Assembly (NCBI GenBank): GCA_964016885.1
Contig: OZ024746.1
Location: forward strand, 18,042,001-18,106,000
Source of the DNA: Eledone cirrhosa
Taxonomy: Eukaryota
Reading direction: 5' to 3'
Length of the DNA: 64,000 bases
Each line of letters starts with the position of its first letter. The stretch's first letter is position 1. The notes beneath the pieces were generated by a model. The model saw nothing but the letters and a program-made list of their open reading frames with translations, searched no databases and was not told where the DNA came from. A program made the position numbers and the translations under genes. Shown here one piece after another: positions 33,950 through 61,100 of the stretch.

Positions 33950-34089
33950 ATATATAAATATATATATATATATAATATATTTATGTATATATAATATGTA
34001 TATATATATAATATATTTATGTATATGTGTATATATGTATATGTGGAGATATAATATTTATGTATATATATATATATATATACATAATG

Positions 34090-34138
<49 letters not shown>

Positions 34139-34346
34139 ATATATATAGGTATATATAGTATATATATATTGGTATATATAGTATATATATATAGGCATAT
34201 AATATAAATGATATATGTATATATGATATATATATATATATCATATATATATATATCATATATATATATGTATATATGATATATATATATAGATATGTAT
34301 ATATGTTATATATATATATATATATATATATAGATATGTATATATG

Positions 34347-34388
<42 letters not shown>

Positions 34389-34760
34389 GTTATATATGTA
34401 TATATGTTTTATATATGTTTTATATATGTATATATGTTTTATATATGTATATATGTTATATATATGTATATATGTTATATATATGTATATATGTCATATA
34501 TATATATGTATATATGATATATATATATATGTATATATGATATATATATATATATGTATATATGATATATATATATATATATGTATATATGATATATATA
34601 TATATGTATATATGATATATATATATATGTATATATGATATATATGTATATATGATATATATATGTATATATGTATATATGATATATATATGTATATATG
34701 ATATATATATATATATGTATATATGATATGTATATATATATATGTATATATAACATATAC

Positions 34761-34801
<41 letters not shown>

Positions 34802-35249
34802 ACATATATACATATATATATATATATGTATATATATAACATATATACATATATATATATATATATAACATATATATATATAACATATATACATATATAT
34901 ATATATACATATAACATATATACATATATATTACATATATATATGTATATGTTATATATATATATATATGTATATATGTTATATATATATATATATATGT
35001 TATGTATATATGTTATTTATATATATATGTATATATGTTATATATATGTATATATGTTATATGTATATATATATATATATTTTATATATATATATGTATA
35101 TATTTTATATATGTATATATGTTATATATGTATATATGTATATATGTTATATGTTATATATGTATATGTATATATGTTATATATATATATGCATATATGT
35201 TATATGTTATATATATATGTATATATGTTATATATATATGTATATATGT

Positions 35250-35280
<31 letters not shown>

Positions 35281-35976
35281 GTTATATATATATATATGTT
35301 ATATATATATATATGTTATATATATATATGATATATGATATATGTTATATATGTTATATGTTATATATGTTATATGTTATATATATATGTTATATATATG
35401 TATATATGTTATATATATGTATATATGTTATATATATGTATATATGTTATATATATGTATATATGTTATATATATGTTATATATGTATATATGTTATATA
35501 TGTTATATATGTATATATGTTATATATGTTATATATATATATATATGTATATATGTTATATATATATATGTATATATGTTATATATATATATGTATATAT
35601 GTTATATATATATATGTATATATGTTGTATATATGTTATATATATGTTATATATATGTTATATATATGTATATATGTTATATATGTATATGTTATATATG
35701 TATATGTTATATATGTATATGTTATATATGTATATGTTATATATGTATATGTTATATATATGTATATGTTATATATATGTATATGTTATATATGTATATA
35801 TGTTATATATGTATATATGATATATATATATATGTATATATGTATATATGTTATATATATGTATATATGATATATATATATATATATATATATGATATAT
35901 ATATATATATATGTATATATGATATATATATATGTATATATGATATGTATATATGATATATATATATGTATATATG

Positions 35977-36008
<32 letters not shown>

Positions 36009-59505: not shown

Positions 59506-59589
<84 letters not shown>

Positions 59590-59796
59590 CGAAGACGCGT
59601 GGCTGAGTGGTTAGAGAATTGTATTCGTAATCGTAAGGTTGTGAGTTCGATTCCCTAACCGGGCGATGCGTTATGTCCTTGAGCAAGACACTTTATTTTA
59701 CGTTGCTCCTTCTATCTCGAGTTGCGATAGATAATATTAGCAATTGGAAAGACCAATGGAAACATTGTTTCCTCAATCCGATTTGACGAAAGTTGA

Positions 59797-59851
59797 CATA
59801 TACCAGTGGTTTCTTGAAAGCAAACAAATGTTGCTTTCAATCATCAGAATG
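59797..59851 (-). ncRNA. minimal type I hammerhead ribozyme motif A
   Basis: CAUU-CUGAUGA-UUGAAAGCAA(CAUUUGU)UUGCUUUCAA-GAAA-CCACUGG-UA/UAUG: complete core, 10-bp stem II, GUA cleavage triplet, weak stem I. Confidence 0.6.
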
Positions 59852-59921
59852 AAAGTTGACATATATATATAATGTCAACTTTCGTCTGACTGCTGTCGAT
59901 ATATATATATATATATATATA

Positions 59922-60079
59922 TAGAAGTGGTTACACAACAGTTAGTTCACCATACCGAGAACAATTGTTTCACCTTAGCGGATCCTCAGCTCGTAAATTT
60001 AAGATTACGAGCTGAGGATCCGCTAAGGTGAAACAATTGTTCTCGGTATGGTGAACTAACTGTTGTGTAACCACTTCTA
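59922..60079. repeat. perfect 75-bp inverted repeat with 8-nt loop
   Basis: 59922-59996 is the exact reverse complement of 60005-60079. Confidence 0.97.
60008..60045 (+). ncRNA. minimal type I hammerhead ribozyme motif B (mirror copy on - strand at 59956-59993)
   Basis: CGAG-CUGAGGA-U-CC(GCUAA)GG-U-GAAA-CAAUUG-UU/CUCG: 4-bp stem I and palindromic stem III ACAAUUGU, as in Penelope-type minimal hammerheads. Confidence 0.55.
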
Positions 60080-61100
60080 CCTAACTCGTCCCATGGACTG
60101 AGTGCTCTACCACTACGGATATTACCTTCCAGCGTTCTACCACTGTGGAGAAGTTCAAGTATCTTGGGGCGGTGTTCATGAGTGATGGAAGGCTGGAGAC
60201 TGAATTAATATATATATATATCGATAGTCATACGAAAGTTGACATATATATAATGTCAACTTTCGTCTGACTGTCGATATCGATAGTCATACGAAAGTTG
60301 ACATATGTCAACTTTCGTCAAATCGGACCGAGGAAACAACGTTTCCATTGGTCTTTCCAGTTGCTAATATTATCTATCGCAATAGAAGGAGCAGCGTGAA
60401 ATAAAGTGTCCTGCTCAAGGACATAACGCATATATATATAGATATATGCAGATATATATATACAAATAATGAATCAAAACATCAAATATGTTTAGAATTT
60501 TGTGTTTCTCAATAAGCAAGCTCAATAGATTTCATCTATATACATATATCTTTTCATTTCATTTGGTTACATATATAAGTGGGCGTGAAACACTACTCGA
60601 TCAGGGATATCTGGAGATATGGTTAATATTAAACGGTGAAACCTTAGGTAGAGCATTTGTTCCGTGTATGAACATAAATAATGTATACACACATATACAC
60701 ACGCACATATTTATATAACGTTGAACCTTTATTTTTCTGTTGATCATGTATTTTTTTAACGATCACTTGTGTTTGGTAATATTGTTGGAGATTCAATAGT
60801 CTTAATTACATAATATGAAATTCTGTAAGATTGCTTTTTAGAAAAAATAACTTAAAGACTTAAACAAAAAGGCAACTAAATTTATTATATTTTACTGAAT
60901 CTAAGGATTGTGGATGTCTGTAGTTGGTTCGCTGTTGAGATGGTTAAAATTTCTGGCATCCAGATTTAATGTGGGTAAGCAAGGTTTGCCTATTACGATT
61001 CCTCATACCAAAAATGCACGCACACAATATTATATATATATATAACGTATACATATATATGAGTGTATATTAAAATATGTAAGTTAAATTCTTTATATTT

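Follow-up and report, generated by a model that had tools for sequence, protein, structure and literature searches.

The Sm-alpha repeats of Schistosoma carry Pol III boxes. According to the available text of PMC6155905, these repeats also have a type I hammerhead ribozyme (HHR), and animal retrozymes are described, in the accessible part of the source (10.64898/2026.07.22.740005), as tandem repeats with one HHR per unit. Among Penelope-like elements (PLEs), the Hydra clade is defined by ORF motifs and insertion features in the available portion of Craig et al. (2021, PMC8557442), where the traits given for PLEs include tails, (TA)n targets and copies that are inverted and 5'-truncated, and what the PLE hammerhead does is called unclear. 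The accessible part of its supplement includes Hydra-1_Obim from Octopus bimaculoides, which prefers (TA)n and has hammerheads of the same build. PAc, a Poseidon element of Anolis, belongs to another PLE clade; in the available text of Frangieh et al. (2024, PMC11167929), two reverse transcriptase (RT) start sites define its tail, and its hammerhead, which overlaps the ORF start, cleaves only with protein. Here, we analysed a locus of 844 bp in a 64-kb stretch of Eledone cirrhosa DNA (the window, whose positions are used throughout). The features that an earlier note had drawn from the letters of this locus, namely A and B boxes, inverted SINE arms, palindromes, a hairpin, hammerheads and an RT scrap, were confirmed at about the same positions. 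The note had offered two explanations, an undescribed SINE/retrozyme-like mobile RNA or a hotspot of serial fold-back insertions.

Very probably, the 844-bp stretch is a single-copy pile-up, in which pieces of four multicopy retroelement families lie in a (TA)n microsatellite and both hammerheads are passengers predicted not to cut. With 40 candidates scored per query in the DNA similarity searches, which a diverged second composite copy could escape, the full architecture had itself as its sole full match (40 scored of 8,315 candidates in the 3.0-Gb genome), and the other scored matches covered 59899-60144 or SINE pieces only. Exact scans of the whole genome placed all four matches of a palindrome-unit marker, and both matches of a SINE-end junction marker, at this locus. 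The module families are independently abundant, with 3,730 exact genome matches for a SINE 3' 29-mer, 6,721 for a 27-mer of hammerhead A (HHR A) and 2,546 for a 30-mer of hammerhead B (HHR B). At 205 other loci, some of them overlapping, no SINE 3' marker had an HHR A or HHR B marker within 400 bp; at three of these loci A and B markers were that close to each other, which indicates that pile-ups in (TA)n recur. The mobile RNA is contradicted by these results, as the SINE and HHR markers do not co-occur at the other loci examined, the junctions are unique and the architecture, which would be present in more than one copy in a mobile family, matches only itself. The second explanation, the insertion hotspot, is supported. 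Most likely, the locus has no function and is not mobile; it is probably genomic debris of an ordinary kind and not a new mobile RNA. Being debris of known element types, it is of little importance in itself. It cautions that a hammerhead near Pol III boxes in a microsatellite-rich genome is not necessarily a retrozyme. In the literature, covered as titles and abstract openings with subscription papers outside the scope, there was no SINE-hammerhead chimera of this kind and no PLE-mobilised SINE.

The left flank of the locus, and its likely insertion target, is a (CA)n(TA)n microsatellite [59509-59588]. It is followed on the plus strand by SINE copy 1 [59589-59801], a full-length copy with an intact tRNA-type head, as had been claimed, which has its A box at [59600-59610] and its B box at [59645-59654]; ARAGORN made no tRNA call on this head. 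The family is tRNA-headed, about 215 bp long, and stands alone as dispersed copies, and stand-alone copies with unique flanks have target duplications of 10-15 bp (e.g. L044, L045, L050, L069 and L074). With A and B boxes, dispersed copies and target-site duplications, it is a tRNA-derived SINE, and it is like the tRNA-derived SINEs of molluscs in its A/B-box head, its length of ~215 bp, its target duplications and its thousands of copies. It carries no hammerhead of its own. The first ~120 bp are common to other SINEs in the window. The family ends with GATCG(T/A)TCCT or GATCGACTGTCGAT(AT)n, an end that is partly self-complementary. In copy 1 the native 3' end is replaced after GAAAGTTGA, and a near-private TTTT is found at [59696-59699]. 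For a partner LINE, the 3' ends of L137 and L138 were compared by eye with the SINE and showed no likeness. For the 3' half of another SINE copy, L051 (the equivalent of window 59715-59799), the predicted fold is three-way and comprises two hairpins and an end that is palindromic.

SINE copy 2 [60303-60431] is on the minus strand, 5'-truncated and without A or B box, and it converges on copy 1. An inverted SINE arm of ~135 bp had been described and is present, [59666-59801] against [60303-60431], with 55 nt at 91% and 80 nt at 95%, or 93.8% identity over 128 aligned columns; however, the real inverted arm extends over ~247 bp, [59666-59912] against [60208-60431], at 80% identity. The two arms have in common an end that is unique genome-wide and three minor variants (found in 7, 4 and 9 of 58 other copies), which are possibly linked in one subfamily. 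Comparison of the copies suggests that the two arms arose by local duplication. They may also be two insertions, because they diverge by ~6% and the best unrelated copy is equally close to the left arm (94.1%). The palindromes between the arms repeat the final 12-25 nt of the SINE exactly, in direct and inverted orientation, together with a piece of its tail, and stretches of 30 nt are identical in the left and the right half. One such fold-back copy of the SINE 3' end with a tail piece is in segment [59851-59898]; an (AT)n run and three more are in segment [60208-60318], where reads give no confirmation. Both segments are found only at this locus, and the palindromes were ruled out as MITE terminal repeats for that reason.

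Scanning all 64 kb of the window for the motif gave three type I hammerhead cores and no more, each of them at this locus, one on the plus strand [60012-60041] and two on the minus strand, [59989-59960] and [59847-59801]. Their computed H17 positions are 59801, 59960 and 60041, in agreement with the cleavage sites at 59801 and 59960 that had been proposed. Rfam gave no matches at gathering score, and none of its 73 matches at E<=10 was a hammerhead family. The miRNA matches of the hairpin that holds two of the cores fall short of the gathering score and are put down to its perfect stem.

Both HHRs are apparently parts of the 3' pseudo-LTRs (pLTRs) of two Hydra-clade PLE families, here called A and B; they are assigned to PLEs because longer copies run into RT/GIY-YIG-type ORFs with CxCX5C and, in family B, DKT and RW[KR]. 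The earlier note was therefore right to link the hammerheads to PLEs, but they derive from two autonomous families and not from a SINE. The family A fragment [59797-59854], of 54-58 nt, is on the minus strand and includes the core [59847-59801]. The core reported there is present; most of its stem I is gone, mainly the 3' strand, and a microhomology of 4 nt, GAAA, lies at [59851-59854]. Only 4 of 7 stem I pairs are left, 3 of them contiguous, whereas 27 of 29 family copies have at least 6 of 7.

Family A is characterised by a stem I of 7 bp, by (TA)n on its flanks and by inverted partner copies. Its copies have two 3' ends ~65 nt apart (10 long, 16 short and 3 other, n=29), and 15 divergent pairs within 1 kb were counted by eye among the first 100 markers listed. 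A Hydra-type ORF end is colinear upstream of HHR A in 3 of 10 extended loci and in L172, and the proteins of families A and B are 53% identical over 194 aa. As read from copies covering the C-terminal part of the ORF, family A has CxCX5C, a C-terminal endonuclease and a CxH upstream of the HHR, along with the (TA)n target, inverted copies and tail of the Hydra clade. The ORF and the hammerhead are separated by a long 3' region that is rich in microsatellites and holds other, nested elements (L179:4200-6600, L181:3350-6600 and L187:1650-6750). Further PLE ORF fragments were seen in L176, L180, L103, L082 and L184, with what we take to be other Hydra-type and Neptune/Naiad-like motifs.

Family B occupies the centre of the locus. 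An (AT)n run [59899-59921] forms its 5' flank. Then comes an inverted, 5'-truncated pLTR copy without tail [59922-59996] on the minus strand, with core [59989-59960], and on the plus strand the 3' end of the element [60005-60144], composed of the pLTR with core [60012-60041] and a 65-nt tail [60080-60144]. The arms [59922-59996] and [60005-60079] make a perfect hairpin of 75 bp with an 8-nt loop. The hairpin had been reported as containing hammerhead B; this motif is on both strands, one per arm. The whole segment [59922-60144] recurs in the genome, at 89-98% identity, in the order (TA)n, inverted 75-nt arm, junction, forward pLTR, 65-nt tail and (TA)n. The 29 best hairpin copies have 27 different junctions, the junction of the window not among them, which argues that the hairpin forms anew at insertion, although part of this diversity may come from later mutation. 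A marker of the inverted copy was found in 30 of 91 family B copies. In the hairpin, an inverted 5'-truncated copy is combined with a tail in the usual way, and this is an insertion form that recurs in family B. At L073:1200-1580, the pLTR hairpin of a diverged B-like copy is joined directly to a 5'-truncated member of the SINE family found in this locus. The HHR B marker also occurs six times with a spacing of 47-60 kb at G000:C1:143338132-143621340, likely a tandem segmental duplication.

Copies of family B selected by their tail alone reach upstream into an ORF, over a distance of up to at least 1.37 kb. A near-full-length natural copy of ~2.6 kb, L181, is interrupted by stops and frameshifts and has the layout pLTR-HHR-tail followed by an ORF with DKT, YRDDG, CxCX5C and a C-terminal endonuclease ending LN..E..C. 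An RRLRWRA motif is found in L171, and L173 has 342 open codons that end ~200 nt before HHR B. Homologues of the ORF in databases have 667-718 aa, 39-42% identity and the same motifs; Atlas clusters carry HTH_animal, and one cluster has GIY-YIG in 18% of its members. Direct Pfam scans of the ORF pieces gave nothing significant. Family B can be described as a Hydra-clade element, with a single ORF in less than 3 kb that has the RT first, followed by a C-terminal GIY-YIG-type endonuclease, with DKT, RW[KR], a CxCX5C linker, CxxC and CxH, without CCHH (by eye), and with a canonical HHR in the pLTR, a (TA)n target, an inverted 5'-truncated copy and a tail. A short non-autonomous form of family B was considered and discarded as a query artefact, since copies selected by tail or anchor run on towards the ORF; 32 of 91 anchored copies reach the end of the 300-nt yardstick. 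At L181:150-2950 the order is pLTR-ORF-partial pLTR, with a family A copy directly after.

Families A and B share with the Hydra clade a canonical type I HHR near the 3' end, a palindromic stem III and an A or U at the cut, as well as a C-terminal endonuclease, CxxC and CxH around E and N residues, and a tail at either end. Their HHR sequences differ, by eye, from that of Hydra-1_Obim, which makes them other families. Their tails are of ~65 nt, against the 30-40 nt quoted for PLEs in the accessible text, and the microsatellite-rich 3' region of family A, of ~1.7 kb or more, is unlike the Hydra-clade description available there. The window holds only fragments of these elements. Apparently, A and B are further members of the known Hydra clade, and they may already be catalogued (Repbase and Dfam were outside the scope of this work). 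PAc is alike in its AT-rich targets and in the extension of both target strands (PMC11167929, available text).

The family B tail directly adjoins a 64-nt internal scrap of a LINE RT ORF [60145-60208] on the plus strand. The scrap translates as VEKFKYLGAVFMSDGRLETEL and has a multicopy source, with 51 matches from 40 scored candidates in the genome search. Pfam was blank on its ORF, which we assume to be RTE-like. A ~100-bp tandem array of the same RT stretch was seen in L128-L136 (G000:C26:13662042-13663190) and has nearly the same 3' break as the scrap in the window.

In the pile-up reading, the origins of the modules, the uniqueness of the junctions and the insertion form of family B were observed directly, and the order of events is a proposal; no empty allele was seen. 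The tRNA-SINE would first have inserted into (TA)n. A break beside its self-complementary 3' end may then have been repaired by several rounds of snap-back synthesis with ATAT as the priming site, from which the GAAAGTTGACAT palindromes and the second, inverted SINE arm would have come; snap-back synthesis yields inverted repeats at repair junctions in the available text of PMC5728401. The 54-58-nt family A piece and the 64-nt LINE piece would have been captured through microhomologies of 1-5 nt. Finally, family B would have entered the central (AT)n, with RT starting, in line with the prediction from the PAc work (PMC11167929, accessible part), at two sites 65 nt apart on opposite target strands, after which the two short cDNAs would have been linked head to head. 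The locus resembles the insertions of synthesis-dependent MMEJ and polymerase theta (PMC5728401, accessible part) in its short direct and inverted flank copies and microhomology joins. It differs from the junctions described there in that distant repeats supplied some of the inserts, and in the greater length of its inverted arm, ~130-250 bp.

An unlikely alternative is one complex retrotransposition, in which the RT of a Hydra PLE or a LINE would have switched templates between SINE, PLE-A, LINE and PLE-B at one (TA)n break, in an event that would still be a one-off. Both scraps are of ~60 nt and retroelement-derived, the junction microhomologies are short, and the A fragment ends 0-4 nt from its GUA cut site. 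The B tail is joined directly to the LINE scrap, while in the other 29 tail-selected copies the tail is followed by (TA)n or (CT)n, and this fits a joint B-plus-LINE event. The fusion of a B-like pLTR to a truncated SINE at L073, and SINEs with an inverted 5'-truncated copy at 2 of 57 loci (L033 and L077), also agree with a single event. However, the B arms are 100% identical and the SINE arms 94%, which points to different ages; family A copies that end at the cut are rare and without clear excess; and SINE inverted pairs within 1 kb numbered 0 among the first 100 markers listed (by eye), against 15 for family A. A PLE-mobilised SINE is not supported, as inverted 5'-truncated partners are not frequent. 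The PLE-like arrangement of a SINE with an inverted 5'-truncated partner or in tandem was seen in a small minority (L033:1496-1754, L077:1497-2038 and L070:1138-1584).

The 5' ends of copies were compared with the position of the ribozyme cut. For family B, the sample was 91 of the 1,730 copies that have their anchor immediately 3' of the cut, the first listed and all on C1, with one of the first 92 skipped (L219-L308, G000:C1). Only 1 of 91 begins at the cut (within -3..+2), and 25 of 91 have their start at the hammerhead's 5' edge, 29-42 nt upstream of the cut; the copy in the window belongs to this class. The peak of 25, in an interval set after the data were seen, compares with 13 in the 32 nt below (binomial p 7e-6) and 9 in the 32 nt above (3e-7), and two pairs outside it look duplicated. 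It may reflect RT stalling at the hammerhead or run-off at the transcript start. For family A, 72 overlapping matches ending near the cut were reduced by eye to 35 places, where T right after the cut occurs in 9, against 5 each at +3, +7 and +10/11; 1 of 3 such loci examined was truly family A. Ribozyme-cut RNA as a regular template was discarded on these counts, with no clear excess at the cut for family A and 1/91 for family B. PAc is alike in having uncleaved RNA as its main template; among the family B copies, 90 of 91 continue past the cut. The available text of PMC11167929 reports no 5'-end peak at the hammerhead 5' edge.

In a further reading, which we regard as unlikely, a Hydra PLE RT would have jumped in one event across four RNAs, including a family A RNA ending at its own cut, and the ~140-nt family B piece would be a defined class of product, a strong-stop-like cDNA. 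For this product, RT would start in the tail of the upstream pLTR and run off at an RNA 5' end just before the hammerhead, in about a quarter of insertions. If true, this would account for solo pLTRs, and the PLE promoter could be mapped with nothing but the genome. Families A and B, which have thousands of young copies, make possible a genomic test of what the PLE hammerhead does; in the first family B sample, templates are uncleaved and 5' ends gather at the hammerhead 5' edge.

That the interior [60218-60318] is partly an assembly or library artefact of palindromic, AT-rich sequence is very improbable. Depth was zero at [60269-60302] in 4 of 4 short-read runs, it was almost nil at [60235-60268], and the locus is not bridged by any single piece, although such holes prove nothing and the runs may come from another individual. 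The right-hand palindromes have no independent read confirmation. On the left, a 69-nt short-read contig in X1 spans the SINE-HHR A junction with no differences, and X1-X3 are one sample, possibly the assembled one. Moreover, the palindrome units show point differences that are consistent (GTCTGACTG against GTATGACTA), and between the arms 6% of sites differ, both unlike read fold-backs.

The pile-up reading has both hammerheads as passengers, and constrained folding is consistent with it. The probability of the hammerhead fold was 2e-4 for the bare HHR A fragment, 3e-10 with its flanks and 4e-3 for an intact family copy, and for HHR B it was 4e-56 with the hairpin and 6.5e-9 for an isolated monomer; nearest-neighbour folding leaves out tertiary contacts, dimers and protein help, and the comparison rather than the absolute value is the evidence. 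Both are predicted not to work here, and the proposed 160-nt circle is unlikely. The earlier note had envisaged a Pol III-driven SINE/retrozyme-like RNA, in which tandem hammerheads excise and circularise ~160 nt, and the intact A and B boxes and two minus-strand cores 159 nt apart agree with it. It is nevertheless extremely unlikely, since the composite is single copy; the plus strand is the one read from the Pol III head, and on it HHR A lies in antisense and the complement of B comes before B itself; a T4 run [59696-59699], a Pol III termination signal, precedes every hammerhead there (of 40 other copies, one has a T at this site); the minus strand has no A or B box, and RNA begun upstream on it is predicted to fold B into the 75-bp hairpin; and HHR A has lost most of stem I. 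The locus is like non-LTR retrozymes and Sm-alpha in having PLE-type type I hammerheads in a short non-coding stretch. In contrast to them, it has no tandem units with a complete type I HHR in each (HHR A is truncated), no second copy, two unrelated HHRs with identified autonomous parents, and promoter and ribozymes on unmatched strands, so that no sense transcript of a repeat family joins Pol III boxes to an intact HHR. Animal retrozymes, with their tandem repeats and one HHR per unit (10.64898/2026.07.22.740005, accessible part), are likewise different.

Elsewhere in the window, an ARAGORN tRNA-SeC call at [18185-18265] is false and sits in a minisatellite of ~33 bp. Low-GC, G-skewed blocks are found at [2001-10000] and [34001-36000], and three sampled spots are long compound (TA)n/TATG arrays.
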